From contig OY969931.1 of the NCBI GenBank assembly GCA_963704705.1, forward strand, positions 1,170,001 through 1,202,000: a stretch of 32,000 nt of DNA. Reading direction: 5' to 3'. The notes under the pieces were generated by a model, which saw only the letters and a list, made by a program, of their open reading frames with translations, ran no database searches and was not told where the DNA came from. This document shows positions 12,013-31,775 of the stretch, one piece after another; position 1 is the first letter of the stretch; each line of letters opens with the position of its first letter. Both the position numbers and the translations under genes were made by a program. The stretch is from an uncultured bacterium. GTDB lineage: Bacteria; Patescibacteriota; Gracilibacteria; UBA1369; PNNO01.

Positions 12013-12408
12013 ATGTCCGAAACACCAAAATCAGAAGTTCCTGAAAAGGATTTTTCAACGGACAGGCTTGATGATACGCTGGCTGCGACTGATGCGATTA
12101 TATTAAGAATTAAAACAGCTTGTGATCTTGTTGTTAGAACTATGACAGCAATTGATGATACCAAAAAATTTCAAAATAGTTCCCTTCCAATAGTGAGGGA
12201 AGTTTATACATCGCAATTCAAAAAATTACTTGAACAATTAGAGGCAGATGAGATCAAAAAAGGAACAGTAAAAATAGAACTTATTAGAAAAATTGAAATT
12301 ATAAATGAAGCCATAAAATTGCATAAAGGTTCATTTTTCTTAAGAGACTTAAACAGGGCTTTAAGAATACTGAAAAAAGAGCTCGAAAGCCTTACAACGG
12401 ACTTTTAA
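12013..12408 (+). CDS. hypothetical protein (131 aa)
   Basis: ORF 10 nt downstream of ntpD. No motif recognised. Its 3' end overlaps the 3' end of the convergent recombinase gene by 17 nt. Confidence 0.45.
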   Translation: MSETPKSEVPEKDFSTDRLDDTLAATDAIILRIKTACDLVVRTMTAIDDTKKFQNSSLPIVREVYTSQFKKLLEQLEADEIKKGTVKIELIRKIEIINEAIKLHKGSFFLRDLNRALRILKKELESLTTDF

Positions 12409-13213
12409 TACTTTTTATAGCTTTTTGACGAACATGAGTATAAATTTGCGTTGTTCTTACACTAGCATGACCTAAAAGCTCCTGTACATACCTTAGGTTA
12501 GTTCCGCACTCAATCAAATGCGTTGCAAAACTATGCCGGAGCGAATGAAAAGTAGCCGGAATATCAACCTCAGCTTTTTTAAGTGCATTCTTAAAAACCT
12601 TCTGAACTGTTCGTGGATGTAACTTTCCTCCCCTATTACTCTCAAAAACATATTGGTACGGCTTTTTATCTTTCAAATAAAACTTGAGTCGATCCCAAAG
12701 CTTATCAGGTAAAATTGTAAAACGACTTTTGAATCCCTTGCCATTTTTGATATAAATCGTGTGATCATAAAAACGAACATCCCTGACCTTAAGGTCGATA
12801 AGCTCACTCAGCCTCAACCCCGCTCCATAAGCCAAAAGAATAATAAGTTTGTGCTTTTTATTGTTGGTGGAGTCTGCGATCAGAAGTACCATCGGCTTGG
12901 AAAGTGTTTTAGGCGTACTTTTTGGCCGCTTAGCATACGGAACCTTGATTTCTTTACGGCGTTTCATGACGTTAAAATAAAAAAATTTTATCGCACATAA
13001 ATACAAATTGCGCGAAACCGGCCCAACTCCCTCCTTAGCCTTCTCAAATAAAAATTGCTGCACCATTTGCTGGCTATAACGTCGTATTGCCTCCCCATCA
13101 AATTCCAAATACTTCTCGATGTTATACATGTACGTTTTGCGAGTCCTCGGACTATAATTGCGAATAACCAAGGCAAACTCCATCTCCTTTAGCATTTTAT
13201 TAATTTTTTTCAT
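12392..13213 (-). CDS. intI: Integron-integrase-like tyrosine recombinase (short form, 273 aa)
   Basis: Catalytic set present: R in AGLRLSE, K in GKGFKSR, HxxR in HSLRHSFAT, H in LLGHASV, Y in QIYTHV. N-terminus RNYSPRTRKTY and C-terminus IYTHVRQKAIKSIKSPL resemble IntI (IntI1 ends ...IYTHVLKVGGAGVRSPLD, from memory). It is divergent from the cassette array. Only 62 aa separate GKG from HSLRH, so the IntI-specific insertion seems to be missing. Confidence 0.8.
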   Translation of the reverse strand: MKKINKMLKEMEFALVIRNYSPRTRKTYMYNIEKYLEFDGEAIRRYSQQMVQQFLFEKAKEGVGPVSRNLYLCAIKFFYFNVMKRRKEIKVPYAKRPKSTPKTLSKPMVLLIADSTNNKKHKLIILLAYGAGLRLSELIDLKVRDVRFYDHTIYIKNGKGFKSRFTILPDKLWDRLKFYLKDKKPYQYVFESNRGGKLHPRTVQKVFKNALKKAEVDIPATFHSLRHSFATHLIECGTNLRYVQELLGHASVRTTQIYTHVRQKAIKSIKSPL

Positions 13214-13314
13214 AAAAATATGTTAAAAATATGCACGCAGCATATCCAAACATTATTAAATATTTCTAAAAAAAACCTAAAATATGCTAAAGTACGCTAA
13301 GTAGGGAGTTAGCG
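13214..13314 (+). other. attI-like region with recombination point G|TTAGCG at 13308|13309
   Basis: Identity with the copy of cassette 1 at 30993 begins exactly at GTTAGCG (13308-13314). Inverted boxes CGCTAA (13295-13300) and TTAGCG (13309-13314) are separated by 8 nt. Upstream direct repeats are AAAATATGTTAAA (13214) and AAAATATGCTAAA (13279), with a palindrome ATATGCacgcaGCATAT at 13229-13245. Confidence 0.7.
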
Positions 13315-13318
13315 GAAA

Positions 13319-13347
13319 TTGGGCTGATTTTAAAAGCGACTTAATAT
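13319..13347 (+). promoter_or_regulatory. cassette-borne promoter candidate (cassette 1; repeated in cassette 28)
   Basis: TTGGGC, 17-nt spacer, TAATAT. It lies inside the cassette, so it travels with it (same sequence at about 31004-31032). Confidence 0.35.
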
Positions 13348-13378
13348 ATAATTCAAATAATTCTTAACCTAAAATTCT

Positions 13379-13957
13379 ATGAATCAAACATGGAAAATCA
13401 TTGTCGCCGTCATTATTACAGCAGTCGTTGTCGGAGGTGGCTTTTACTTCTGGCAACAGAGCAAGGAAGAAACTCCACAAGTTACTCGAAAAACCGAAGA
13501 TCAAACACCAGCTCCAGCAGCTGAAACCGAAAAAACGTTCACTGGTAGCGGATTTACATTCACATACCCCGTAGAATATACAGCTGATAACAAAGGACTT
13601 TGGACAACGGACGGTTATCAAAGACATATAAATCCGCCTGAAGCTTGCGATACCTGCCAGATACCAGAAGTAGAAGTAAAAGCCACCACTTCAAATAAAA
13701 CATTGGATCAACAAATTATTGCTGATTATGACTTGCCAGGAACAACACTGGCAGAGATGTCTAAACAAACTGGCATCAAATATGAGCAAATAAAAATCGG
13801 CGACAATGATTTTATCAAAATCACGGTTAGCGACATGTTCGATGTAACAGGATATTACACAAAACATAATAATCAGATTGTCGCTTTTAAAGTTTATTTG
13901 ACGGAAAAAGATAATAAGGCATTAAAAGATATTATTTCGACTTTGAAGTTTAATTAA
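13379..13957 (+). CDS. cassette 1 (13309-14086): membrane-anchored hypothetical protein (192 aa)
   Basis: N-terminal TM helix IIVAVIITAVVVGGGFYFW followed by a Pro/Thr/Glu-rich linker. The protein is identical to the ORF at 31064-31642. Confidence 0.7.
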   Translation: MNQTWKIIVAVIITAVVVGGGFYFWQQSKEETPQVTRKTEDQTPAPAAETEKTFTGSGFTFTYPVEYTADNKGLWTTDGYQRHINPPEACDTCQIPEVEVKATTSNKTLDQQIIADYDLPGTTLAEMSKQTGIKYEQIKIGDNDFIKITVSDMFDVTGYYTKHNNQIVAFKVYLTEKDNKALKDIISTLKFN

Positions 13958-13972
13958 AATCAGCCCAACATC

Positions 13973-14092
13973 AGCTAACAAAGGCTATGCGGCTACGATC
14001 CTTTCAGTCGCTACGCCCATATTGTGCGGTGGTGAGCCACTTCGCGGCCAATTATACCACCGCACAACATCGCATAGCCTTGGCCGTTAGCC
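13973..14092 (+). repeat. attC 1
   Basis: R'' AGCTAAC, R' GTTAGCC. L arms aaggctatgcg/cgcatagcctt. Inner stem tgtgcggtgg/ccaccgcaca. ATTATACCACC core. Confidence 0.85.
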
Positions 14093-14109
14093 GCCATTTT
14101 CATTCCCAC

Positions 14110-14137
14110 TTGAATTTTTATCAGATTTATTTATAAT
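14110..14137 (+). promoter_or_regulatory. cassette-borne promoter candidate (cassette 2)
   Basis: TTGAAT (14110-14115), 16-nt spacer, TATAAT (14132-14137), 27 nt upstream of the ATG at 14165. Confidence 0.5.
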
Positions 14138-14164
14138 TTATCTCTTAATTTATAATAATAAATT

Positions 14165-14456
14165 ATGAATACACCTGAAGGATTTCCAGTTGAATTATGT
14201 CCACCACACTATATAGATCATCAATTAGATAATACTCATAGAGACATTTGGATTACAGATGTTAGTGAACAAATATACAGAAGATGGATATTTTGTTGAA
14301 AACTTTCCACCTGAAATAAATGAAAGAGTATTTCAAGTTCGTGATGGTGTATCACGGGCAACACAATTTAAGGTACGTACACATCCTGAGAGAATTTATC
14401 GTGCAACTGATAATCCACATAAAACAGGATGGTGGGAATGTAATGTAGATAAATAA
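14165..14456 (+). pseudogene. cassette 2 (14087-14579): possibly frameshifted small gene
   Basis: The ATG at 14165 opens a 45-codon frame (MNTPEGFPVELCPPHY...) that stops at about 14300. A second frame, open from 14229, carries the 65-aa track ORF (14259-14456). The frames overlap and share one upstream promoter, which is consistent with a single gene broken by a 1-nt indel. Two small genes is the alternative. Confidence 0.35.
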
Positions 14457-14463
14457 AAACAGC

Positions 14464-14585
14464 GGCTAACAGGTGTATGTTCAGCTTCACTCGCTATGCT
14501 CGTTACGCCCATATTTTTGCAAGTGATGGCGCTTCGCGCTATTATACCACTTGCAAAAACATAGTACATACACCGGCCGTTGTAC
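14464..14585 (+). repeat. attC 2
   Basis: R'' GGCTAAC, R' GTTGTAC. L arms ggtgtatgt/acatacacc. Inner stem tttttgcaagtg/cacttgcaaaaa. ATTATACCAC core. Confidence 0.85.
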
Positions 14586-14656
14586 GAAATAGCAATGAGT
14601 TCTATCTTTGTGTAAATTTTAAGAAGCACCACTTGACTAATTGGTGATATAGTTGT

Positions 14657-14980
14657 ATGTTATCCCCCATTCATAATCATAAAACTATGAATTTTGGTAG
14701 CTATCGAGCTCGCGTCGCTATAGTAAGAGATATTAGCGAGTTCAAAACAATCAAAGATAGTAATAGAGCAGACAAACTAAATCAAGCTTTAAACAAGGGA
14801 AAAAGCAAAGTTGAACAAGCAAAAACTGATGCAGATATTGAACAAGCATGTAAAGAAACTTTTGAAGAAGTATTAAGAGTTTTTGAAGGTAGTGATGAAC
14901 ATGATGGTATGCGGGGCTTTGTTTTAGTGGATAGATTTCAAAGCGACGCTCACAATTGGTGGAATAATTCAAAGAATTAA
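14657..14980 (+). CDS. cassette 3 (14580-15152): hypothetical protein (107 aa)
   Basis: Intact ORF. A paralog at 29288-29611 differs by one residue (S35R). The true start may be the internal ATG at 14687. Confidence 0.6.
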   Translation: MLSPIHNHKTMNFGSYRARVAIVRDISEFKTIKDSNRADKLNQALNKGKSKVEQAKTDADIEQACKETFEEVLRVFEGSDEHDGMRGFVLVDRFQSDAHNWWNNSKN

Positions 14981-15004
14981 TAGTTATAAGCTCATTGCTA
15001 CATC

Positions 15005-15158
15005 GTACAACAGGCGCATTAACGGTTCGGGCTTTTTCTTGCGGCTGGCTTCGCACAGCCAAAAATCCCTCTCCCAACTTTTTTAACGGTGCTTTCATGC
15101 CTTGCGGCATGTTATTATACCACCGTCAAAAAGTTCGCTAATGCGCCAGACGTTGCAC
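15005..15158 (+). repeat. attC 3 (long type A)
   Basis: R'' GTACAAC, R' GTTGCAC. L arms ggcgcatta/taatgcgcc. Inner stem ttttttaacggtg/caccgtcaaaaa. ATTATACCACC core. Confidence 0.85.
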
Positions 15159-15437
15159 GCAATTGCACACACTCAAAAAAAACCGTAAGTCAATTTCTCG
15201 ACTTTCGCTTTTTTTGCGCCTGCGGCGGTTGTGTGTGCAACAACGTACAACAAACGTATATTCAACTCTCTTCTCTCTCATGTTTCATTTTCTTTTAATC
15301 AATTAAATAACTTAATAAATAAAAATAAATTTCACTACAAATAACCCGTTCGTCCAAATTAGGCTTCTCTCGCCGCGGTGATTGGGATATTATATCACCG
15401 CTTCTCGTTCAGCCTAACTTTGTATATACGTTGGACG
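15153..15437 (+). repeat. cassette 4: ORF-less 285-bp cassette, copy 1 of 3
   Basis: It starts at G|TTGCAC and ends at ...ttggacG|TT. There is an 82-bp body with an A8/T7-8-containing hairpin (ttgcacacac...gtgtgtgcaa). An attC-like part then carries an AT-rich insertion of about 110 nt. Near-identical to 15948-16231 and 17986-18269. Confidence 0.8.
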
Positions 15438-15443
15438 TTATAC
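15235..15443 (+). repeat. attC 4 (within ORF-less cassette)
   Basis: R'' GTGCAAC (15235-41) matches the cassette start TTGCAC. A tandem second box GTACAAC lies at 15244-50. R' GTTATAC. Arms acgtatat/atatacgt. Inner stems ttaggct/agcctaa and cgcggtgat/atcaccgc. Confidence 0.6.
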
Positions 15444-15467
15444 GCCACAAGAAAAAGAATATTGCAA

Positions 15468-15497
15468 TTGACAAAATTGCTATATTTATATTAATAT
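15468..15497 (+). promoter_or_regulatory. cassette-borne promoter candidate (cassette 5)
   Basis: TTGACA (15468-73), 18-nt spacer, TAATAT (15492-97), 25 nt upstream of the ATG at 15523. Confidence 0.45.
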
Positions 15498-15522
15498 CTC
15501 TTTCCTATAACCAATCTATATT

Positions 15523-15936
15523 ATGAGAAGCAGAACACCTATTTGTGATAGGAACAAAAGAGAGCTTGCAATATGCAATGAAGCGCTTGATACAGGATCA
15601 TTTGGAGAATCTTTAATTAAATTAAAGCCATCGGAACTCGACTCGCTTCTAGATAACTTTCATCTTGCTATTACTTTATTTATGGATAGATTGGATTGTG
15701 AAAGGGCGATGAATTTAAAAACCGTAACGCTCGCGTCGGAACTGCATATAATGAATTATTGGAAGCTAAAAAAGGTAATTAACTCCTTTTTCTTGCAGCG
15801 CATAACAGGCGCATTAACGGTTCGGGCTTTTTTTGCGGCTGGCTTTCGCACACCCAAAAATCCCTCACCCAACTTTTTTAACGGTGGTTCCATGCCTTAC
15901 GGCATGATATTATACCACCGTCAAAAAGTTCGCTAA
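15523..15936 (+). CDS. cassette 5 (15438-15947): hypothetical protein; the ORF reads into its attC
   Basis: 137-aa ORF with no stop before the attC. The last 45 or so codons are translated attC sequence, and the stop TAA lies in the L' arm (gcTAAtgcgcc). Confidence 0.5.
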   Translation: MRSRTPICDRNKRELAICNEALDTGSFGESLIKLKPSELDSLLDNFHLAITLFMDRLDCERAMNLKTVTLASELHIMNYWKLKKVINSFFLQRITGALTVRAFFAAGFRTPKNPSPNFFNGGSMPYGMILYHRQKVR

Positions 15937-15953
15937 TGCGCCGGACGTTGCAC
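15800..15953 (+). repeat. attC 5 (type A)
   Basis: R'' GCATAAC, R' GTTGCAC. L arms ggcgcatta/taatgcgcc. ATTATACCACC core. Confidence 0.85.
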
Positions 15954-16231
15954 GCAATTGCACACACTCAAAAAAAACCGTAAGTCATTTCTCAACTTTC
16001 GCTTTTTTTTGCGCCTGCGGCGGTTGTGTGTGCAACAACGTACAACAAACGCATATTCAACTCTCTTCTCTTTCATGTTTCATTTTCTTTTAACCAATTA
16101 AATCACTTAATAAATAAAAATAAATTCACTACAAATAACCCGTTCGTCCAAATTAGGCTTCTCTCGCCGCGGTGATTGGGATATTATATCACCGCTTCTC
16201 GTTCAGCCTAACTTTGTATATGCGTTGGACG
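15948..16231 (+). repeat. cassette 6: ORF-less cassette, copy 2 of 3
   Basis: Same 284-bp unit as 15153-15437. Bounded by G|TTGCAC and ggacG|TT. Confidence 0.8.
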
Positions 16232-16237
16232 TTATGT
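16030..16237 (+). repeat. attC 6 (within ORF-less cassette)
   Basis: R'' GTGCAAC (16030-36), R' GTTATGT (16231-37). Same architecture as attC 4. Confidence 0.6.
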
Positions 16238-16342
16238 GTAATAGCGAAAAGAAAAATGTTGCACATTTTCAATATTTTTGGTAATTTACGTTTATAATTG
16301 CGCACAACCTCATCTAATTCATTATCTTATTAGAAATCAGTT

Positions 16343-16609
16343 ATGAGAGATACAATAAGCGGTTCAAACGAACCTAAACCAGAAAAACCTCCTCTTCATT
16401 CATTGGAACAGTGGGAGTTGTCTAACAGAATTTCGCATGAAACGGGCTGTAATAGTGAACAATTGAAGTGGATCGAAGATCGAATGAATGAATTAAATGT
16501 GGGTGAAAGTTTTGAATGGACCTCAGAAACACAACAAGTGATCACAATTACAAAGGTAGAAGAAAAATTTTACAAGTTAGACTTTCCTCAAAATTACAAA
16601 CGATCGTAA
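16343..16609 (+). CDS. cassette 7 (16232-16794): hypothetical protein (88 aa)
   Basis: Intact ORF followed by a terminator-like hairpin. No motif recognised. Confidence 0.55.
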   Translation: MRDTISGSNEPKPEKPPLHSLEQWELSNRISHETGCNSEQLKWIEDRMNELNVGESFEWTSETQQVITITKVEEKFYKLDFPQNYKRS

Positions 16610-16630
16610 ACGCAAATTACCAAAAATATA

Positions 16631-16660
16631 CGACCGCCTTTAAGGGGCGGTCGTTGCTTT
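16631..16660 (+). terminator. rho-independent terminator candidate inside cassette 7
   Basis: 8-bp GC-rich stem cgaccgcc/ggcggtcg with a 7-nt loop, followed by TTGCTTT. It lies 22 nt after the ORF stop. Confidence 0.5.
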
Positions 16661-16670
16661 ACGCTACTAC

Positions 16671-16800
16671 GCATAACACTGGACATGCGGTTCGGGTTAT
16701 CCCCGAAAGACCTTATGCAAATTGAAAAACCCCGCTCTTTTTGATAAAATTGATTAAGGAAGGGGGGTTTTTCAACTTCGCATGTCCAGGAACGTTATGT
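16671..16800 (+). repeat. attC 7 (divergent type)
   Basis: R'' GCATAAC, R' GTTATGT. L arms ctggacatgcg/cgcatgtccag. Inner stem gaaaaacccc/ggggtttttc. It lacks the ATTATACC core. Confidence 0.8.
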
Positions 16801-16912
16801 GAAATAGCCAGAAATTTCTTAATTATTTTTTAGATTTTTTTGGCAATTTATTTCAACGGTCGACATAACTTATGATATAATTTAGTCAGTTTAATATTTA
16901 ACCAAAATAACT

Positions 16913-17161
16913 ATGGAATCACCAGAACAAGGGTTTAACCCACAAGAACATACACGCTGGGCAAAACAGCGGGCACTTGAACTATTAGAAAACGGAGATC
17001 TTATGCAGGCAATTGACTCAATGGTAAGTGATTTAGGTAAAGATCCTACGCGCCCGCCTGAACAAGTGAGAATGCTTACTATGATGGGCATGATTACAAG
17101 AAATGATCCCGCATTAGATGAAAAGAAAGTACGCGAGTTTATTGAAGGGTTTGCTGAATAA
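16913..17161 (+). CDS. cassette 8 (16795-17399): hypothetical protein (82 aa)
   Basis: Intact ORF. No motif recognised. Confidence 0.55.
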   Translation: MESPEQGFNPQEHTRWAKQRALELLENGDLMQAIDSMVSDLGKDPTRPPEQVRMLTMMGMITRNDPALDEKKVREFIEGFAE

Positions 17162-17204
17162 ATTGCCAAAAAAAGAATAAGGAATAGAAATTTCTGGCTA
17201 CATC

Positions 17205-17405
17205 ACATAACAGCGTGTATCTGGCTACGGAAAATTGGCGTTAATTAAACCCTTAAGGAATGCTAATTTTCCTCCGCCCAAATCCCGCACTAATTTTTGT
17301 GGGTTTTGGATGGAGAGCGTGTATAAAAGTGTTCGTAATAATTTTTAACATTATCTTTTACCAACAAAATTAGTGCGGGACTTCAGATACACGCAAACGT
17401 TAGCC
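17205..17405 (+). repeat. attC 8 (201 bp, divergent type)
   Basis: R'' ACATAAC, R' GTTAGCC. L arms gcgtgtatctg/cagatacacgc. Inner stem cccgcactaatttt/aaaattagtgcggg. Confidence 0.8.
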
Positions 17406-17490
17406 GCCATTCAATATTAGTTATGTATTTGTTATTTATGGCTTTTTGTTGTATAATATATACGTATTATATAATTAACAACTTATATAT

Positions 17491-17835
17491 ATGAATCCTT
17501 TAGAATCCTCTTTTTATGAAGAAGAACACAGTGAAATCGATAATTTAAATAAAGCAATTGAAGATAGTTTGGCAACAACAGTAATTGAAGCTGCTCAAAA
17601 CAGGTCACCTGAAGAAGCTAGAAAAGTGTTTAAAGCGAGCTTAGTTATTAATAGGATTTTTAATAATGTATTATTTGATGCTCGCGCAGATGGAACATCT
17701 GTATCAGATTTACCGACTTTACAGGGTATGATTGATGATTATGTTGCAAAACTTAATTTTGATTCATCGATATTAAGTAATTCTGTTGAAAAATTTCATA
17801 AATTAGCTGTTGAACTAGCTAAAGAAGAAATGTAA
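17491..17835 (+). CDS. cassette 9 (17400-17985): hypothetical protein (114 aa)
   Basis: Intact ORF preceded by an AT-rich leader containing TATAAT (ttgttgTATAATat). No motif recognised. Confidence 0.55.
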   Translation: MNPLESSFYEEEHSEIDNLNKAIEDSLATTVIEAAQNRSPEEARKVFKASLVINRIFNNVLFDARADGTSVSDLPTLQGMIDDYVAKLNFDSSILSNSVEKFHKLAVELAKEEM

Positions 17836-17843
17836 TAGAAAGC

Positions 17844-17991
17844 GGCTAACAGGCGCATATAAGGTTCACTTCGCTTCGCTCGCTCACCCAAAAAAGCTAC
17901 ACTCGTCTCGGTGGTGAGCACGCTTATAAGCGTGACATTTTACCACCTCGTCTCGTTTCGCATTTCTTCTTATATACGCCGGACGTTGCAC
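17844..17991 (+). repeat. attC 9
   Basis: R'' GGCTAAC, R' GTTGCAC. L arms ggcgcatataag/cttatatacgcc (1 mismatch). Apical palindrome cacgcttataagcgtg. Confidence 0.8.
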
Positions 17992-18269
17992 GCAATTGCA
18001 CACACTCAAAAAAAACCGTAAGTCATTTCTCGACTTTCGCTTTTTTTTGCGCCTGCGGCGGTTGTGTGTGCAACAACGTACAACAAACGCATATTCAACT
18101 CTCTTCTCTTTCATGTTTCATTTTCTTTTAACCAATTAAATCACTTAATAAATAAAAATAAATTCACTACAAATAACCCGTTCGTCTAAATTAGGCTTCT
18201 CTCGCCGCGGTGATTGGGATATTATATCACCGCTTCTCGTTCAGCCTAACTTTGTATATGCGTTGGACG
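17986..18269 (+). repeat. cassette 10: ORF-less cassette, copy 3 of 3
   Basis: Same 284-bp unit as 15948-16231. Bounded by G|TTGCAC and ggacG|TT. Confidence 0.8.
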
Positions 18270-18275
18270 TTGTAT
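18068..18275 (+). repeat. attC 10 (within ORF-less cassette)
   Basis: R'' GTGCAAC (18068-74), R' GTTGTAT (18269-75). Same architecture as attC 4. Confidence 0.6.
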
Positions 18276-18309
18276 GATATAATCAAATAAATTCTTTAAC
18301 ATTGTAAAC

Positions 18310-18777
18310 ATGAAAAAGTTTGTACTGGGACTAACAGTTGGAATAATCGTTGCAATTGCGCCAGCAGTTTATGCAATGATCGTTCCTCCGGTAAATTTTA
18401 CTGATGTCAGCCAAAACGATTGGTATTATACTCCCGTAACACAATTGGCTACCATGGGTATTATTAATGGTTATTCCGATGGATCGTTTAAACCTACAAA
18501 TTCAATCAACAGGGCTGAAACTGCTAAACTTATTTATGCACTTTATGAGCAACTTAACGATAGTAGCAAAGTGGCGGATTTAGAAAATAGAATTGAAATT
18601 TTAGAGACTCAGATGAGCACATTAAGTTTACCGGGAGACTGCTATTATAATAATACTTGGTATTCAACCGGGGATACGGTTCCACAGGATAATGTTTGCG
18701 AAACAGATGTTTGTGGTCCTGGGTCTTGTACATGTCAAGATGATGGAAGTCTTGCGCAATGTGCAATAACCTACTAA
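18310..18777 (+). CDS. cassette 11 (18270-18923): secreted/anchored SLH-domain protein (155 aa)
   Basis: N-terminal signal/TM segment. FTDVSQNDWYYTPVTQLATMGIINGYSDGSFKPTNSINRAETAKLI fits the S-layer-homology consensus. A short coiled coil and a Cys-rich C-terminus follow. Confidence 0.65.
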   Translation: MKKFVLGLTVGIIVAIAPAVYAMIVPPVNFTDVSQNDWYYTPVTQLATMGIINGYSDGSFKPTNSINRAETAKLIYALYEQLNDSSKVADLENRIEILETQMSTLSLPGDCYYNNTWYSTGDTVPQDNVCETDVCGPGSCTCQDDGSLAQCAITY

Positions 18778-18796
18778 AAGCTAATTTGATTACATC

Positions 18797-18929
18797 ACAC
18801 AACAGCTGATTATGCGGTTCCACTCGCCTATCGGCTCGTTTCACCCAACTTTTCAAACGGTGGTTGCACGTCTGGCGACGTGATATTATACCACCGTCAA
18901 AAAGTTCGCATAGTCAGCGGACGTTAGGC
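18797..18929 (+). repeat. attC 11
   Basis: R'' ACACAAC, R' GTTAGGC. L arms gctgattatgcg/cgcatagtcagc (1 mismatch). Inner stem ttttcaaacggtgg/ccaccgtcaaaaa. ATTATACCACC core. Confidence 0.85.
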
Positions 18930-19015
18930 GATATTATTTTATTAAGGTATTTAATGTCTACAAGCTTTACAAGATAATTATTTTATGTATAATTATTTCC
19001 TTTAATAAATATATT

Positions 19016-19225
19016 ATGACTCGACCTAAATTAGATAAAGATCCAAAACTAAAAAGAAGTGAAAGGCTAACTGCTTTTATTGATGAAGAAAGTATGAAAA
19101 GGATTCAATGGGCAGCATTCGTTACAAAGAAATCTATTGGAGAAGTTCTTGGTGATTTGATTATGAAGAATATAAAAGAACCGCCAAAGGAAATAGATGA
19201 AGATCCATTTTTACATGAAGAATAA
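19016..19225 (+). CDS. cassette 12 (18924-19369): small RHH/CopG-like protein (69 aa), tentative
   Basis: The pattern RSERLTAFIDEESMKRIQWAAFVTKKSIGEVLGDLI looks like a beta-strand/helix/helix ribbon-helix-helix layout. Judged by eye only. Confidence 0.4.
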   Translation: MTRPKLDKDPKLKRSERLTAFIDEESMKRIQWAAFVTKKSIGEVLGDLIMKNIKEPPKEIDEDPFLHEE

Positions 19226-19229
19226 CATC

Positions 19230-19375
19230 GCCTAACAGCAAACTATCCGGTTCAGCCTTTTTTGATGCGCGGCTTTGCACGCGCAAAAGGCTTCACCCAA
19301 CTTTTTTTGCAATGGTGGCGCTGACGCGCTATTATACCATCGCAAAAAAGTTCGTATAGTTTGCGGCCGTTGTGT
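19230..19375 (+). repeat. attC 12 (type B)
   Basis: R'' GCCTAAC, R' GTTGTGT. L arms gcaaactat/atagtttgc. Inner stem ctttttttgcaatgg/ccatcgcaaaaaag. ATTATACCATC core. Confidence 0.85.
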
Positions 19376-19409
19376 GAAATAAATCTGTCGCCACTTAATC
19401 TAAAAATAT

Positions 19410-19850
19410 ATGGCTAAAGAAGACAAAGAACATTGCATATTCTGCAAAATCATCGCCGGCAAATCACCGGTAAGTATAGTATACGAAGATGATAGAGTTA
19501 TAGTATTCCCTCCACTTCAACCAGTAAACAAAGGCCATCTGCTCGTAATTCCTAAAAAACATGCACCTTATTTAGCCGATATTGATGAAGATACAGCTAT
19601 GTACGTCATGAAAATTGCAAAAAAAATTGCAGCAGGAATAAGAAAATCTAAATTTAAAAGTGAAGGAGTGAATCTGTTCCTCGCAGATGGCGAAGCTGCA
19701 CACCAAGAAGTCTTCCATCTACACCTACATGTTTATCCAAGATATGCCGGCGATGATTTTGACTTCAAATATGATTTAGAAAAACACTTTGTTAAAATGC
19801 AACGCTCTGAGTTAGATGAGGTAGCAAAAGAAATAAAAGATCATTTATAA
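19410..19850 (+). CDS. cassette 13 (19370-19991): HIT-family nucleotide hydrolase/transferase
   Basis: 146 aa. CIFCKII N-terminus and histidine triad HLHLHVYP. Confidence 0.9.
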   Translation: MAKEDKEHCIFCKIIAGKSPVSIVYEDDRVIVFPPLQPVNKGHLLVIPKKHAPYLADIDEDTAMYVMKIAKKIAAGIRKSKFKSEGVNLFLADGEAAHQEVFHLHLHVYPRYAGDDFDFKYDLEKHFVKMQRSELDEVAKEIKDHL

Positions 19851-19873
19851 AAGATTGGCTCCAGATTTACATC

Positions 19874-19997
19874 ACACAACAGCAAACTATCCGGTTCAGC
19901 TCCTTAAAGTCGCTTCACCCAACTTTTTTTGCAACGGTGGCGCTGACGCGCTATTATACCATCGCAAAAAAGTTCGTATAGTTTGCGGACGTTAGAC
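19874..19997 (+). repeat. attC 13 (type B)
   Basis: R'' ACACAAC, R' GTTAGAC. L arms gcaaactat/atagtttgc. ATTATACCATC core. Confidence 0.85.
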
Positions 19998-20015
19998 GCC
20001 ATTGGGCTTTTTCTT

Positions 20016-20693
20016 TTAAGCGGCTTTCGACAAGGCTTGAAGGACTTTTTGCGAATCTGTTACCCAACCAAAAATCCCACCTTGGGCTTTTATAATTTCT
20101 AAAGCAGAACGGTGGCGATCTTCGTCATAAGCCGCCATACAATCCGCGAGGACAATTGCATTAAATCCACGGTCATTTGCCCCAGAAACCGTAGTTGAAC
20201 AACAAACATCAGTGGTCACACCAGCCACGAGTAAATTTATAATACCCCGCTCTTTCAAAACTGCCTCTAAGTCAGTCTTGTAAAAAGCGTTTTTGCCTGG
20301 TTTATCAATTACAAGTTCATCAGGCAACGGGGCGACTTCATCAATAATTCCGTGACCTTCTTCACCTCGAATTAAAATTCGTCCCATTGGTCCTTGATCT
20401 CCAATACGTCGCCCTTCTGGCCATCGAGTCAGTTTTGTTGCGGGGCAATCACTCAAGTCGGGCAAATGACCTTCTCTTGTATGGATTATAAGCATAGCTC
20501 TTTCTCGAAAAGCTCGAATTATCTTCTGAATTGGTGCAATTGTCCTCGCTAACAAATCAACATCATTTCCCAAGGACTCACCGTATCCACCATGTCGCAA
20601 AAAGTCCTTCTGCATATCAATCACGATCAAAGCAGTTTCCTCGAGTTTTACGTCGATAGGAGTAGGTTCTGCTTGTATGTTTACATTAGTCAT
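20016..20693 (-). CDS. cassette 14 (19992-20906): isochorismatase-family cysteine hydrolase (amidohydrolase), reverse orientation
   Basis: 225 aa. ALIVIDMQKDF (Asp), DKPGKNAF (Lys) and VAGVTTDVCC (Cys) give the catalytic-triad pattern. It is on the opposite strand to the array. A candidate own promoter on the minus strand is TTGCGC-N17-TATAGT at about 20715-20743. Confidence 0.85.
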   Translation of the reverse strand: MTNVNIQAEPTPIDVKLEETALIVIDMQKDFLRHGGYGESLGNDVDLLARTIAPIQKIIRAFRERAMLIIHTREGHLPDLSDCPATKLTRWPEGRRIGDQGPMGRILIRGEEGHGIIDEVAPLPDELVIDKPGKNAFYKTDLEAVLKERGIINLLVAGVTTDVCCSTTVSGANDRGFNAIVLADCMAAYDEDRHRSALEIIKAQGGIFGWVTDSQKVLQALSKAA

Positions 20694-20774
20694 AAGCCAC
20701 TTAATTAAAAAGAGGGCGAACTATAACATAGAAAAAGAAAAAGCGCAACCAGCTTTCGCTTCGCTTCAGCTGGC

Positions 20775-20912
20775 GCCTAACACGGCATGTGCGGTTCGGG
20801 CTTCTTTTCGGCTGGCTACGCACAGCCTCAAAGCCCTCACCCATATTTGCCACTGCTACCGCTGCGCGATATTATAGCAGTGGCAAACATCGCACATGCC
20901 GGAACGTTATGT
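20775..20912 (+). repeat. attC 14
   Basis: R'' GCCTAAC, R' GTTATGT. L arms cggcatgtgcg/cgcacatgccg. Inner stem tttgccactgct/agcagtggcaaa. ATTATAGCAG core variant. Confidence 0.85.
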
Positions 20913-20945
20913 GACATCCATTTTTTCTTATTGTAGAATAACGAC

Positions 20946-21514
20946 ATGGAAAAAGAACCAATTACACCGATTGAAATAGTAAAAGCAGATATTAAACTTT
21001 TTGAAAAATATCAAAAAGAAATTTTGGAAATCGAAAGAGAACTTATCGAAAATAGTTCATCAGCATATCTTATTGATGAACAAGATGAGCTCGATTTTAT
21101 GTTAGATGCGTTTAAAAAAGGAGGTTATGCTTATTTAGTAATGGAAAATGAAAAAGTTACTGGGTTTTTAGTTGTTGGGCCACTCGATGATGGGACTGAA
21201 TTGCCTGAAACAGATACTCAAAATTATCCAATTGCAAATTGCCTTCATATCAAAGTAATGTACATAAAAAATACAAGCAAAGGAATTGGTAGTGAAATGA
21301 TGGAAAAATTAATTCAAGAACTAGATAAAGAACAATGGAAATATTTATTTGTAAGAACTTGGATTGATCCACCAAATGAAGGAGCATTAATTTTTATACA
21401 AATCGAGCTGGCTTTGAAGCTGTTCCAAATGCAATAGTTGAATCAACAAAAAGAAAATTGAATGGAAGTGGAACACTCCAAATAAAAAGACAATATTTTT
21501 CAAAAAGGATATAG
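20946..21514 (+). pseudogene. cassette 15 (20907-21678): frameshifted GNAT acetyltransferase
   Basis: Same gene as 30259-30828, but gaaggagcATTAATT replaces gaaggagcTATTAATT (1-nt deletion near 21388). The frame changes just before the AINFYTNRAGF motif and gives a 163-aa truncated product. Confidence 0.8.
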
Positions 21515-21528
21515 AAAAAATGGACATC

Positions 21529-21684
21529 ACATAACAGGCGCATTAACGGTTCGGGTTTTTTTTGTCGGGCGGCCTAAAGCACGCCCAAAAATCCCTCACC
21601 CAACTTTTTTAACGGTGGTGACATGCCTTGCGGCATGTTATTATGCCACCGTCAAAAAGTTCGCTAATGCGCCGGACGTTAGGC
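21529..21684 (+). repeat. attC 15 (type A)
   Basis: R'' ACATAAC, R' GTTAGGC. L arms ggcgcatta/taatgcgcc. ATTATGCCACC core. Confidence 0.85.
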
Positions 21685-21706
21685 GGCATCTCTTAATCAA
21701 TCTATT

Positions 21707-21928
21707 ATGAAATTATATACAAAAATATTGTTAGCATTATTTATTGGAATAGTTCTCACCTTACTTTCAATATCATATAAATCATCTTATGAATTTCATG
21801 TACTTGAATACAGTAGTTATGAAACACGACCTTCCTGGGGATTCCCTTTGCAGTATGTATACGATAATGATGTTAGCTCACCAGTAATGTCAATGAATAA
21901 GAAGATACATTCATTTTTACATATATGA
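21707..21928 (+). CDS. cassette 16 (21679-22108): small membrane protein (73 aa), followed by an overlapping 25-aa TM ORF
   Basis: N-terminal TM helix ILLALFIGIVLTLLSI. A second ORF (21925-22002, MIGDVLIYSFLAFIPFLIFKKRDTA) starts in an ATGA stop/start overlap and stops inside R''. This is either a coupled pair or one frameshifted gene. Confidence 0.5.
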   Translation: MKLYTKILLALFIGIVLTLLSISYKSSYEFHVLEYSSYETRPSWGFPLQYVYDNDVSSPVMSMNKKIHSFLHI

Positions 21929-21996
21929 TTGGGGATGTATTAATTTACTCATTTTTGGCTTTCATACCATTTTTAATATTTAAAAAAAGAGACACC

Positions 21997-22114
21997 GCCT
22001 AACAGCAAACTATCCGGTTCCGCTCCTTGCAGTCGCTACACCCAACTTTGCCAGTGGTGGCGCTTCGCGCTATTATACCACTGTCAAAGTTCGTATAGTT
22101 TGCGGACGTTGTGC
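21997..22114 (+). repeat. attC 16 (type B)
   Basis: R'' GCCTAAC, R' GTTGTGC. L arms gcaaactat/atagtttgc. ATTATACCACT core. Confidence 0.85.
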
Positions 22115-22208
22115 GCCATTTTCGTTATTCTTTTGTTAATTATTTTACCCTTGACGCGGCAGACGTATTATGCTTTTATTAACTCCTTAATTCTTAATAT
22201 AATTAATT

Positions 22209-22548
22209 ATGAAGATTACTGAGAATTGGTCTGATGGGCACCATGAAACTGAAAAAGGAGAAGTCATGACATATAATTTTAATATACGAATTGTATAGTC
22301 TGCACCGTCAAGTATAGGACAAATAAAAAAGCGTGAAAGTAATTTGGTTGTTCAACAATGCGAATTACGACAAGCAATCTCCGAAGGTAGACTTGATGAT
22401 GCTTTAACAATTGGAACTAATGTTGAAGACGCTTTTGCAAAAAGATAGAAAGAAACCTGAGTGTAATGCGTTTAATCATCTAAAAGTATTACGAGCAGGT
22501 ATACGGGGAAAAATAGAGCAACTAAAAACCGAAGAAAGAACTATTTAG
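22209..22548 (+). pseudogene. cassette 17 (22109-22690): decayed gene, no intact ORF
   Basis: The ATG at 22209 opens a frame interrupted by two in-frame TAG codons (codon 30 and about codon 78). Coding-like sequence then continues in another frame to TAG at 22546. No ORF of 60 aa or more in any frame. Confidence 0.4.
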
Positions 22549-22572
22549 CTATCAAAAAATAACGAAAACTGC

Positions 22573-22696
22573 GCACAACAGCAAACTATCCGGTTCAGCT
22601 CCCTTCGCTCGCTTCACCCAACTTTTTTTGCAATGGTCGCGCTATCGCGCTATTATACCATCGCAAAAAAGTTCGTATAGTTTGCAGACGTTAGGC
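22573..22696 (+). repeat. attC 17 (type B)
   Basis: R'' GCACAAC, R' GTTAGGC. L arms gcaaactat/atagtttgc. ATTATACCATC core. Confidence 0.85.
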
Positions 22697-28671: not shown

Positions 28672-28793
28672 ATATAACAGGTGTATGTTCGGCTACACTC
28701 GCTTAGCTCGTTTCGCCCATATTTTTGCAAGTGGTTCCGCTTCGCGTTATTATACCACTTGCAAAAACATCGTACATACACCGGACGTTAGGC
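28672..28793 (+). repeat. attC 23
   Basis: R'' ATATAAC, R' GTTAGGC. L arms ggtgtatgttcg/cgtacatacacc (1 mismatch). Same subfamily as attC 2. Confidence 0.85.
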
Positions 28794-29210
28794 GCATCTC
28801 TTAATCAATCTATGACGACAACTATATACAAAAATATTGTAAGCATAATTTATTGGACATAGTTCTCACCTTACTTTCAATATCATAAAAATAATGTTAT
28901 GAATTACATGTACTTGAATACAGTAGTTATGAAACACGACCTTCCTGGGGATTCCCTTTGCAGATGTATATGATAATGATGTTAGCTCACCAGTAATGTC
29001 AACGAATGAAAAGATATATTCATTTTTTACAAATGATTGGGGATATATTAATTTATAAATTTTGGCTTCTCAAACCATTTTTAATATTTAAAAAAAGAGA
29101 CACCGCCTAACAGTAAACTATCCGGATTCTCTCCTTCGGCTACACCCAACTTTGCCAGTGGTGGCGCATCGGCTATTAAACAAATGTAAAATCCGTATAG
29201 TTTGCGGACG
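28788..29210 (+). pseudogene. cassette 24: decayed paralog of cassette 16 (membrane protein)
   Basis: Alignable by eye with 21679-22108 along its length, but the start codon is lost (tctATGAcgacaac vs tctattATGaaatta) and there are multiple indels. No ORF of 60 aa or more. Confidence 0.7.
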
Positions 29211-29216
29211 TTGTAC
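29105..29216 (+). repeat. attC 24 (degenerate)
   Basis: R'' GCCTAAC, R' GTTGTAC, and the left arm is intact. The right half of the inner stem (expected attataccactgtcaaagttcg) is replaced by attaaacaaatgtaaaatccg, so the hairpin is disrupted. Confidence 0.6.
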
Positions 29217-29287
29217 GAAATAGCAATGAGTTCTATCTTTGTGTAAATTTTAAGAAGCACCGACTTACTAATTGGTGATATAGTTGT

Positions 29288-29611
29288 ATGTTATCCCCCA
29301 TTCATAATCATAAAACTATGAATTTTGGTAGCTATCGAGCTCGCGTCGCTATAGTAAGAGATATTAGCGAGTTCAAAACAATCAAAGATCGTAATAGAGC
29401 AGACAAACTAAATCAAGCTTTAAACAAGGGAAAAAGCAAAGTTGAACAAGCAAAAACTGATGCAGATATTGAACAAGCATGTAAAGAAACTTTCGAAGAA
29501 GTATTAAGAGTTTTTGAAGGTAGTGATGAACATGATGGTATGCGGGGCTTTGTTTTAGTGGATAGATTTCAAAGCGACGCTCACAATTGGTGGAATAATT
29601 CAAAGAATTAA
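29288..29611 (+). CDS. cassette 25 (29211-29782): hypothetical protein, paralog of cassette 3
   Basis: 107 aa with one substitution relative to 14657-14980. Confidence 0.6.
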   Translation: MLSPIHNHKTMNFGSYRARVAIVRDISEFKTIKDRNRADKLNQALNKGKSKVEQAKTDADIEQACKETFEEVLRVFEGSDEHDGMRGFVLVDRFQSDAHNWWNNSKN

Positions 29612-29634
29612 TAGTTATAACTAATTGCTACATC

Positions 29635-29788
29635 GTACAACAGGCGCATTAACGGTTCGGGCTTTTTCTTGCGGCTGGCTTCGCACAGCCAAAAATCCCT
29701 CTCCCAACTTTTTTAACGGTGCTTTCATGCCTTGCGGCATGTTATTATACCACCGTCAAAAAGTTCGCTAATGCGCCAGACGTTAGGC
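29635..29788 (+). repeat. attC 25 (type A)
   Basis: R'' GTACAAC, R' GTTAGGC. Body identical by eye to attC 3. Confidence 0.85.
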
Positions 29789-29870
29789 GATATTATTTTA
29801 TTAAGGTATTTAATGTCTACAAGCTTTACAAGAAATATTTTATATAATTATTTCCTTTAATAAATATATT

Positions 29871-30078
29871 ATGACTCGACCTAAATTAGATAAAGATCAA
29901 AACTAAAACGAACTGAAAGGCTAACTGCTTTCATTGATCAAGAAAGTATGAAAAGGATTCAATGGGCACATTCGTTACAAAGAAATCTATCGGAGAAGTT
30001 CTTGGTGATTTGATTATGAAGGATATAAAAGAACCGCCAAAGGAAATAGATGAAGATCCATTTTTACATGAAGAATAA
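29871..30078 (+). pseudogene. cassette 26 (29783-30219): frameshifted paralog of cassette 12 (RHH-like)
   Basis: gataaagatCAAAACTAAAAcgaac replaces gataaagatCCAAAACTAAAAagaag. The base loss creates TAA at codon 12, and further indels lie downstream. Confidence 0.7.
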
Positions 30079-30082
30079 CATC

Positions 30083-30225
30083 GCATAACAGCGAACTATC
30101 CGGTTCGGGCTTTTTTGATGCGCGGCTTTGCGGGGCAAAAGCCTTCACCCAACTTTTTTTAATGGTGGCGCTGACGCGCTATTATACCACCGTAAAAAAG
30201 TTCGTATAGTTTGCGCCCGTTATGT
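30083..30225 (+). repeat. attC 26 (type B)
   Basis: R'' GCATAAC, R' GTTATGT. L arms gcgaactat/atagtttgc (1 mismatch). ATTATACCACC core. Confidence 0.8.
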
Positions 30226-30258
30226 GACATCCATTTTTTCTCATTGTAGAATAACGAC

Positions 30259-30828
30259 ATGGAAAAAGAACCAATTACACCGATTGAAATAGTAAAAGCA
30301 GATATTAAACTTTTTGAAAAATATCAAAAAGAAATTTTGGAAATCGAAAGAGAACTTATCGAAAATAGTTCATCAGCATATCTTATTGATGAACAAGATG
30401 AGCTCGATTTTATGTTAGATGCGTTTAAAAAAGGAGGTTATGCTTATTTAGTAATGGAAAATGAAAAAGTTACTGGGTTTTTAGTTGTTGGGCCACTCGA
30501 TGATGGGACTGAATTGCCTGAAACAGTTACTCAAAATTATCCAATTGCAAATTGCCTTCATATCAAAGTAATGTACATAAAAAATACAAGCAAAGGAATT
30601 GGTAGTGAAATGATGGAAAAATTAATTCAAGAACTAGATAAAGAACAATGGAAATATTTATTTGTAAGAACTTGGATTGATCCACCAAATGAAGGAGCTA
30701 TTAATTTTTATACAAATCGAGCTGGCTTTGAAGCTGTTCCAAATGCAATAGTTGAATCAACAAAAAGAAAATTGGATGGAAGTGGAACACTCCAAATAAA
30801 AAGACAATATTTTTCAAAAAGGATATAG
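30259..30828 (+). CDS. cassette 27 (30220-30993): GNAT-family N-acetyltransferase (intact copy)
   Basis: 189 aa. The acetyl-CoA pocket pattern is SKGIGSEMMEKLI followed by NEGAINFYTNRAGFE. Confidence 0.8.
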   Translation: MEKEPITPIEIVKADIKLFEKYQKEILEIERELIENSSSAYLIDEQDELDFMLDAFKKGGYAYLVMENEKVTGFLVVGPLDDGTELPETVTQNYPIANCLHIKVMYIKNTSKGIGSEMMEKLIQELDKEQWKYLFVRTWIDPPNEGAINFYTNRAGFEAVPNAIVESTKRKLDGSGTLQIKRQYFSKRI

Positions 30829-30842
30829 AAAAAATGGACATC

Positions 30843-30999
30843 ACATAACAGGCGCATTAACGGTTCGGGTTTTTTTTGTCGGGCGGCCTAAAAGCACGCC
30901 CAAAAATCCCTCACCCAACTTTTTTAACGGTGGTGACATGCCTTGCGGCATGTTATTATGCCACCGTCAAAAAGTTCGCTAATGCGCCGGACGTTAGCG
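30843..30999 (+). repeat. attC 27 (type A)
   Basis: R'' ACATAAC, R' GTTAGCG. L arms ggcgcatta/taatgcgcc. Confidence 0.85.
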
Positions 31000-31063
31000 G
31001 AAATTGGGCTGATTTTAAAAGCGACTTAATATATAATTCAAATAATTCTTAACCTAAAATTCT

Positions 31064-31642
31064 ATGAATCAAACATGGAAAATCATTGTCGCCGTCATTA
31101 TTACAGCAGTCGTTGTCGGAGGTGGCTTTTACTTCTGGCAACAGAGCAAGGAAGAAACTCCACAAGTTACTCGAAAAACCGAAGATCAAACACCAGCTCC
31201 AGCAGCTGAAACCGAAAAAACGTTCACTGGTAGCGGATTTACATTCACATACCCCGTAGAATATACAGCTGATAACAAAGGACTTTGGACAACGGACGGT
31301 TATCAAAGACATATAAATCCGCCTGAAGCTTGCGATACCTGCCAGATACCAGAAGTAGAAGTAAAAGCCACCACTTCAAATAAAACATTGGATCAACAAA
31401 TTATTGCTGATTATGACTTGCCAGGAACAACACTGGCAGAGATGTCTAAACAAACTGGCATCAAATATGAGCAAATAAAAATCGGCGACAATGATTTTAT
31501 CAAAATCACGGTTAGCGACATGTTCGATGTAACAGGATATTACACAAAACATAATAATCAGATTGTCGCTTTTAAAGTTTATTTGACGGAAAAAGATAAT
31601 AAGGCATTAAAAGATATTATTTCGACATTGAAGTTTAATTAA
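31064..31642 (+). CDS. cassette 28 (30994-31769): membrane-anchored hypothetical protein, duplicate of cassette 1
   Basis: 192-aa protein identical to 13379-13957. At the DNA level there is one synonymous change plus changes in the attC. Confidence 0.7.
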   Translation: MNQTWKIIVAVIITAVVVGGGFYFWQQSKEETPQVTRKTEDQTPAPAAETEKTFTGSGFTFTYPVEYTADNKGLWTTDGYQRHINPPEACDTCQIPEVEVKATTSNKTLDQQIIADYDLPGTTLAEMSKQTGIKYEQIKIGDNDFIKITVSDMFDVTGYYTKHNNQIVAFKVYLTEKDNKALKDIISTLKFN

Positions 31643-31657
31643 AATCAGCCCAACATC

Positions 31658-31775
31658 AGATAACAAAGGCTATGCGGCTACGATCCTTTCAGTCGCTACG
31701 CCCATATTGTGCGGTGGTGGCCCTTCGCGGCCAATTATACCACCGCACAACATCGCATAGCCTTGGCCGTTAAAT
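31658..31775 (+). repeat. attC 28
   Basis: R'' AGATAAC, R' GTTAAAT. Otherwise as attC 1, with a 2-nt indel in the apical loop. Confidence 0.8.

Follow-up and report, generated by a model that had tools for sequence, protein, structure and literature searches.

A gene-less cassette of about 285 bp stands three times in an integron-like cassette array of an uncultured Gracilibacteria bacterium. It lies within the 32,000-nt window that we analysed, which comprises bases 1170001–1202000 of a single-contig 1.37-Mb genome (contig OY969931.1); all positions given here follow window numbering. Judged from its sequence, this element is probably a cargo-less cassette that can still be mobilised, a neutral or selfish passenger that is maintained and multiplies. 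What the sequence shows directly is the anatomy of the element, the membership of its attC recombination site in the attC family of the array, its exact boundaries, and the multiplicity of cassettes in the array generally.

Copy 1 is cassette 4 (15153–15437, 285 bp), delimited by MAFFT alignment, own-genome search, attC finder and covariance model. Copy 2 is cassette 6 (15948–16231, 284 bp), and copy 3, delimited by MAFFT, own-genome search and covariance model, is cassette 10 (17986–18269, 284 bp). All are on the plus strand, and they are the only full copies of this cassette in the genome (exactly three by own-genome search). Copy 1 is 97% identical to copies 2 and 3, which share 99% identity with each other (MAFFT, own-genome search). 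Identity between the copies runs from G|TTGCAC to GGACG|TT, and the flanks differ at all three sites. These limits are also cassette boundaries according to the attC finder and to a covariance model that was built without these copies. As expected of integron-cassette boundaries, the G|TT limits do not depend on the neighbouring sequence. The initial annotation, made from the letters alone, had described three near-identical copies of a non-coding unit, each filling a whole cassette slot, and this description stands. It had also pointed out that each copy follows an attC ending in GTTGCAC, which turns out to be trivial, the last six bases of the R' box moving with the cassette downstream. Cassettes 3 and 25 illustrate this: the second is a 98.6% copy of the first, with an attC identical up to the G, but what comes next is GTTAGGC and not GTTGCAC. 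Because these two cassettes are followed by different R' halves, the six bases after the G belong to the downstream cassette, as is expected for a crossover at G|TT.

The precise alignment of the copies that the initial annotation called for reveals 10 variable columns, made up of 7 substitutions and 3 indels. The earlier description of two compensating 1-nt indels, 27 nt apart and preserving a constant length, was therefore inaccurate: there are three indels, the lengths are 285, 284 and 284 bp, and the two indels in question lie 16 nt apart, at cassette positions 40 and 56. All three indels are length shifts of short single-base runs (AA/A, T7/T8 and TTT/TT). Three of the 10 variable columns fall in the cargo of the element and three in a 64-nt AT-rich insertion in its attC. 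Among the eight uncompensated differences, three are in the cargo and five in the loop of the attC left arm, which is unpaired. By comparison, the 133 positions that make up the frame, boxes and stems contain a compensated pair as their sole change (Fisher p 0.008, for a partition chosen post hoc). That pair lies in the L''/L' stem, where T:A in copy 1 is replaced by C:G in copies 2 and 3. The pattern of change is suggestive, though no more than suggestive, of a constrained recombination scaffold with drift elsewhere.

The body of the element is only 92 nt long and consists of two arms, complementary to each other end to end, that are joined by a short, weak segment of the form A8-hairpin-T7/8. 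We refer to the paired arms as the frame and to what they enclose as the cargo. In copy 1, the 5' frame arm (15153–15172, plus strand) reads TTGCAC, the cassette half of R', followed by GC-AA-TTGCACACAC, in keeping with an array-wide pattern GTTRRRY-G-[AC][AC]-AT-stem. The cargo (15173–15230, about 58 nt) comprises an A8 tract (15175–15182), a 26-nt hairpin with two internal mismatches (15183–15208), a T tract (15209–15215; T7 in copy 1, T8 in copies 2 and 3) and a GC-rich bulge, GCGCCTGCGGCGG. The 3' frame arm (15231–15244, plus strand) reads GTGTGTGCAA-CA-AC and pairs with the 5' arm. With their flanking boxes, the arms thus read GTTGCAC-GC-AA-TTGCACACAC on the 5' side and GTGTGTGCAA-CA-AC-GTACAAC on the 3' side. 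The 3' arm yields an extra R''-like box, GTGCAAC (15235–15241), simply because the 5' arm contains TTGCAC twice and GTGCAAC is complementary to the second occurrence. The possibility that the body holds a second attC or a decoy was considered and rejected. Nothing supports it: the R-like boxes in the body are inverted (R' 5' and R'' 3', whichever strand is read), and the second R' copy begins with A instead of G.

This frame is not peculiar to the element. For each cassette, we matched the opening 60 nt to the reverse complement of the 60 nt that end at its R'' box. Almost all cassettes of the array pair end to end past the R box, through 2 bp, a 2-nt bubble and a cassette-specific stem of 6–15 bp or more. 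Over the 15 positions past the bubble, the two arms of the same cassette match at 8.7 positions on average, versus 4.8 for arms taken from different cassettes (Mann–Whitney p 1.2e-9). Cassettes in the array start with GTTRRRY-G-[AC][AC]-AT, and their bodies end with CA-[TG]C-R''; the same cassette start occurs in the arrays of five related genomes (loci L105–L109). The initial annotation had viewed the long CACACAC/GTGTGTG hairpin and the tandem R''-like boxes as a special device. Because the element fits the array-wide pattern exactly, we conclude that both are the ordinary frame that nearly every cassette here carries. The cassette-specific stem of the frame can pair solely in an excised circle or across the cargo. 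When excised as a single-stranded circle, the whole cassette is predicted to take the shape of a dumbbell whose two hairpins, that of the attC and that of the frame, lie on opposite sides of the R box.

The attC of copy 1 spans 199 nt (15245–15443, plus strand). It opens with the R'' box GTACAAC (15245–15251) and closes with GGAC and the R' box G|TTATAC (15437–15443), whose last six bases are part of cassette 5. The L stem is formed by L'' AACGTATAT (15253–15261) and L' ATATACGTT (15424–15432). The site thus has all the parts of an attC: R'' (RYYYAAC), R' (GTTRRRY) and an L stem that pairs. We built a covariance model from 23 other attCs in the array, leaving out the copies of the element, and it recovers all three of the element's attCs at full length and at the finder coordinates, with scores of 42.8–47 bits (42.8 for copy 1) and E about 1e-8. 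The nearest attC to that of the element belongs to cassette 32. An interruption of the left arm by AT-rich sequence, which had been noticed earlier, is real, but it is 64 nt long by model alignment (15282–15345), in place of the roughly 110 nt first given; it lies in an unpaired loop of the left arm. About half of the other aligned attCs carry an extra 24- to 26-nt hairpin at the same site.

In all three copies, the minus strand of the attC tip carries TGATATAAT (15389–15397), which resembles an extended −10. Since 26 of the 34 attCs have TGnTAnAAT at the same fixed position, on the minus strand and at a fixed distance from R', this motif is not specific to the element. Most instances are TGGTATAAT, a perfect extended −10. 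TGnTAnAAT is the reverse complement of a near-invariant unpaired TATTATACCA at the attC tip. On the plus strand, 10 of the 34 attCs have TTGCAA or TTGCCA, 17 nt and TATTAT, directed into the next cassette. These motifs could reflect a promoter in every attC or a contact site for the recombinase.

The number of copies is likewise unexceptional for this array. A BLAST comparison of all cassette bodies against each other places 16 of the 34 cassettes in seven multi-copy families of 91–100% identity, including another family with three copies (cassettes 16, 24 and 31). Triplication is thus no exception here, and its initial reading as a sign of unusual mobility or selection is not supported. The duplicates are dispersed singly and not in blocks, which is the expected trace of copy-and-paste by an integrase. 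From the three copies in different contexts, together with the seven multi-copy families, we infer that the element can be excised and integrated. It may have arisen by loss of its cargo or as a minimal cassette from the outset. The recombinase would then excise it and reinsert it at G|TT in the same way as other cassettes, and the copy-and-paste reshuffling that duplicated six other families in the array would have left the three copies. The cargo and the AT-rich insertion appear to have no dedicated host function; hence our description of the element as a neutral or selfish passenger.

The attC family is widespread, being present in 40 of 61 related genomes. In contrast, DNA searches found no homologue of the body or of the AT-rich insertion in 60 relatives, in 205 genomes of the order, in 400 genomes of the phylum, or in plasmids and phages, all matches being to attC tails or low-complexity sequence. 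The initial annotation had itself tied a selected function to conservation outside this array, and none was found in these searches. We also scanned for the pattern TTGCACACAC-N45-75-GTGTGTGCAA, which occurs in 82 stretches from metagenomes, 3 from genomes and 1 from a virus; beyond the pattern itself, BLAST shows no similarity, and we dismissed these stretches as chance palindromes. Inspection of about 100 cassettes in relatives revealed two other mini-cassettes. One, in genome G022 (L106 289–430, G022:C21), is 142 bp long, and its body is nothing but a frame hairpin, TGGCTT-TACC-AAGCCA, accompanied by an attC. The other, in genome G048 (L105 2561–2782, minus strand, G048:C6), is a gene-less cassette of 222 bp with a 104-nt AT-rich body. 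Five further relatives rich in arrays were surveyed, and none yielded a cassette shorter than 300 bp. Thus, cargo-less cassettes are a rare but recurrent state of these arrays, occurring as independent sequences.

No open reading frame (ORF) is wholly contained in the element, consistent with the earlier judgement that it holds no convincing one. The longest frames within it have 43–49 codons, and none exceeds the 70 aa used as a limit for gene-less cassettes by Blanco et al. (2024). A basic peptide of about 47 aa (M[KR]EKRVEY...) could in principle be encoded on the minus strand, where an ATG-initiated frame is open in all three copies and where the two indels 16 nt apart restore the frame. 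However, this frame borrows its stop codon from the upstream attC, beyond the cassette, so that its product would be 47, 47 or 76 aa long depending on the neighbour. Between the two indels, copy 1 is frame-shifted relative to copies 2 and 3 (SESREI against KRKLRN), and the indels that restore the frame are run-length changes (AA/A and T7/T8). The plus strand has a mirror 47-codon frame, as a palindrome predicts. The view that the peptide is a translated palindrome is thereby upheld; we reject a small-protein gene, given the external stop, the variable length and the internal stretch in a shifted frame, and regard it as extremely improbable that the element encodes this peptide. Of the earlier preference for a structural or RNA role over a peptide, the structural half is the best reading, whereas the other half did not lead to a known RNA family, Rfam giving no match.

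Several considerations weigh against a passenger without function. With three near-identical copies, selection would be hard to detect, and the variation among them was, as noted, partitioned after the fact. The lack of function in the element is itself something that we infer. The A8 and T7/8 tracts around the hairpin resemble a bidirectional terminator and are retained in every copy. Finally, a consensus scan found no terminator-like site and no sigma-70-like promoter (a score of 9 of 12 or better) inside any of the three copies. Its negative result on promoters carries little weight, since Blanco et al. (2024, PMC11014356) report promoter activity in most gene-less Vibrio cassettes and state that in silico prediction of these promoters is not possible. 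The passenger reading can be set against regulatory alternatives. In one of these, the element would be a regulatory cassette, its AT-rich insertion acting as a sense promoter for the downstream cassette, its A8-hairpin-T7/8 segment acting as a bidirectional insulating terminator, or both. Sense-strand promoter activity is common in gene-less cassettes (PMC11014356, PMC6557892), a hairpin between A and T tracts has the layout of a bidirectional intrinsic terminator, and all three copies stand upstream of plus-strand genes. Against this, beyond the negative scan, the hairpin is weak for a terminator. Its energies in copies 1, 2 and 3 are −5.5, −0.9 and −5.0 kcal/mol on the plus strand and −8.5, −3.4 and −5.7 kcal/mol on the minus strand, compared with −17.8 kcal/mol for a terminator in cassette 7, and a stem-breaking G>A change has nearly abolished it in copy 2. 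A strong intrinsic terminator was accordingly rejected: there is a U-tract, T7/8 on the plus and T8 on the minus strand, but the stem is mismatched and of low energy. In addition, the downstream cassettes 5, 7 and 11 have promoter-like sequences of their own, such as TTGACA-18-TAATAT at 15468 and TGaTATAAT at 18275, and the AT-rich insertion contains three of the 10 variable columns. We consider a regulatory role unlikely, though worth keeping in view.

A further alternative is an antisense small RNA (sRNA) that would start at TGATATAAT (minus strand, 15397–15389), run leftwards for about 200 nt through the AT-rich insertion and the frame, and stop at the hairpin and T8 (the complement of 15175–15182). 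All three copies have the TGnTATAAT motif and the minus-strand T8, and the hairpin is more stable on this strand, on which the change in copy 2 gives a G-U wobble instead of the A-C mismatch of the plus strand. Moreover, the fold z-scores of the element are strongly negative, that of the minus strand being −6.5. However, the −10-like motif is a trait of the attC family. The attC and frame hairpins account for the strong folds; they are recombination structures and form just as well in DNA. A covariation-aware check of the structure, another step that had been suggested, yielded a single covarying pair, that of the attC L stem, which falls short of a structured RNA. Rfam gave no match at the gathering threshold and at E<=1 only a spurious one to a plant microRNA, ARAGORN found no transfer RNA or transfer-messenger RNA in the element, and there is no homologue in the genomes searched. 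An antisense sRNA is thus quite improbable. The remaining alternative denies that the element is mobile, holding instead that it is a relic of two degraded cassettes or attCs that became fused, and that its copies arose in some way other than by attC recombination. There is a resemblance between the AT-rich insertion and the 3' tail of cassette 29 (Smith–Waterman score 44 versus 28.6 ± 2.7 for shuffles), the insertion ends in CACTAC-AAATAAC, much like a 3' frame end with an R''-like box, and decaying cassettes do occur in the array (24 versus 16 and 31; 26 versus 12). Yet the limits of the copies are exactly G|TT in three unrelated contexts, and the attC scores as a full-length member of its family, with L-stem pairing kept by compensatory change. 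The likeness to cassette 29 hints at an origin through fusion of cassettes or loss of cargo. Because it sits in low-complexity AT-rich sequence, we keep an origin by cassette fusion as a low-probability scenario only, and an immobile relic as a little less probable still than the sRNA.

The mobile, cargo-less cassette that we favor could also be more than a passive one. In this more speculative version, to which we give only a small share of our belief, the element would be a parasite of the integron: its cargo would have been replaced by about 34 bp of extra pairing past the R box, and the nearly fully paired dumbbell would stabilise the attC hairpin, leading to unusually efficient reinsertion. 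If so, empty frames such as the element and the 142-bp cassette of G022 would represent the minimal self-propagating integron cassette, and they could also serve as scaffolds into which new genes are built. In either case, the element is a natural minimal substrate, which shows how little is conserved, apart from the attC and the frame at the cassette ends, in what appears to be a copied cassette. Its 285 bp make it a convenient test piece for assays of the recombinase and of the role that frame pairing plays beyond the R box.

The array in which the element resides contains about 34 co-oriented attCs on the plus strand, from 13973 to about 38463, next to a tyrosine recombinase gene on the minus strand. 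The attCs were located with the rule RYYYAAC-N-9 nt ... reverse complement-NNNN-GTT and then with the covariance model. The model found an extra attC at about 32085–32185, past the end of the window, that the finder rule did not, and what we call cassette 29 is probably two cassettes. The recombinase (12392–13213, minus strand, 273 aa) is IntI-like at both ends and is without the IntI-specific insertion. It matches integron-integrase models in two pieces (model positions 2–183 and 251–327) and scores below the cut-off against TIGR02249, the IntI-specific segment being absent; its best match, to the XerA/integron-integrase model, is below the cut-off. The absent domain is considered essential in classical integron integrases. 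Several other features of the array may be recorded here. Cassettes 24–28 (28788–31769) copy cassettes 16, 3, 12, 15 and 1 (within 13214–22108) in scrambled order, and the ORF has been lost in some duplicates (cassette 24 relative to 16 and 31, cassette 26 relative to 12). Cassette 17 (22109–22690) is a second, larger gene-less cassette, with 582 bp and no ORF above 45 codons. The ORF of cassette 5 (15523–15936) has no stop before its own attC, reads through it, and ends 12 nt before copy 2. The strong hairpin that follows the gene in cassette 7 (16630–16654, −17.8 kcal/mol) is followed by a better T-tail on the minus than on the plus strand, and so may stop antisense transcripts arriving from the attC side.

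It is useful to contrast the element with gene-less cassettes described elsewhere. Vibrio arrays contain multi-copy paralogous non-coding cassettes for which both selfish and regulatory roles have been proposed (Boucher et al. 2006, PMC1382264). Like these, the element has a normal attC, no ORF, several near-identical copies in one array, and no homologues beyond a narrow host range. Unlike them, it resides in a genome of only 1.37 Mb, in an array whose recombinase is without the IntI-specific domain; its body is solely a closed end-to-end frame hairpin; and among the genomes searched it occurs in one alone. The element also resembles the promoter cassettes of Vibrionaceae superintegrons and Treponema integrons (Blanco et al. 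2024, PMC11014356; Tansirichaiya et al. 2019, PMC6557892) in being gene-less, in standing upstream of coding cassettes, and in having no ORF above 70 aa. Promoter activity has been demonstrated for some gene-less cassettes (PMC11014356, PMC6557892), and such activity, mostly on the sense strand, is the defining trait of promoter cassettes (PMC11014356). No promoter-like site scored in the element, and the downstream cassettes appear to have promoters of their own.

The system as a whole shares with the canonical IntI1 and VchIntIA systems its RYYYAAC and GTTRRRY boxes, the G|TT crossover and an imperfect hairpin with an L stem, and, like canonical integrons, it has a co-oriented array that adjoins a recombinase gene transcribed away from it. 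It departs from them in that its attCs are three-armed and 98–201 nt long, in that pairing extends about 20 bp past the R box into the ends of the cassettes to form the frame, and in that its recombinase is short and Xer-like. Taken alone, the element is an ordinary case of something already known, namely gene-less integron cassettes in multiple copies. What sets it apart is a body made of the closed frame only, within an integron-like system that has an atypical recombinase.

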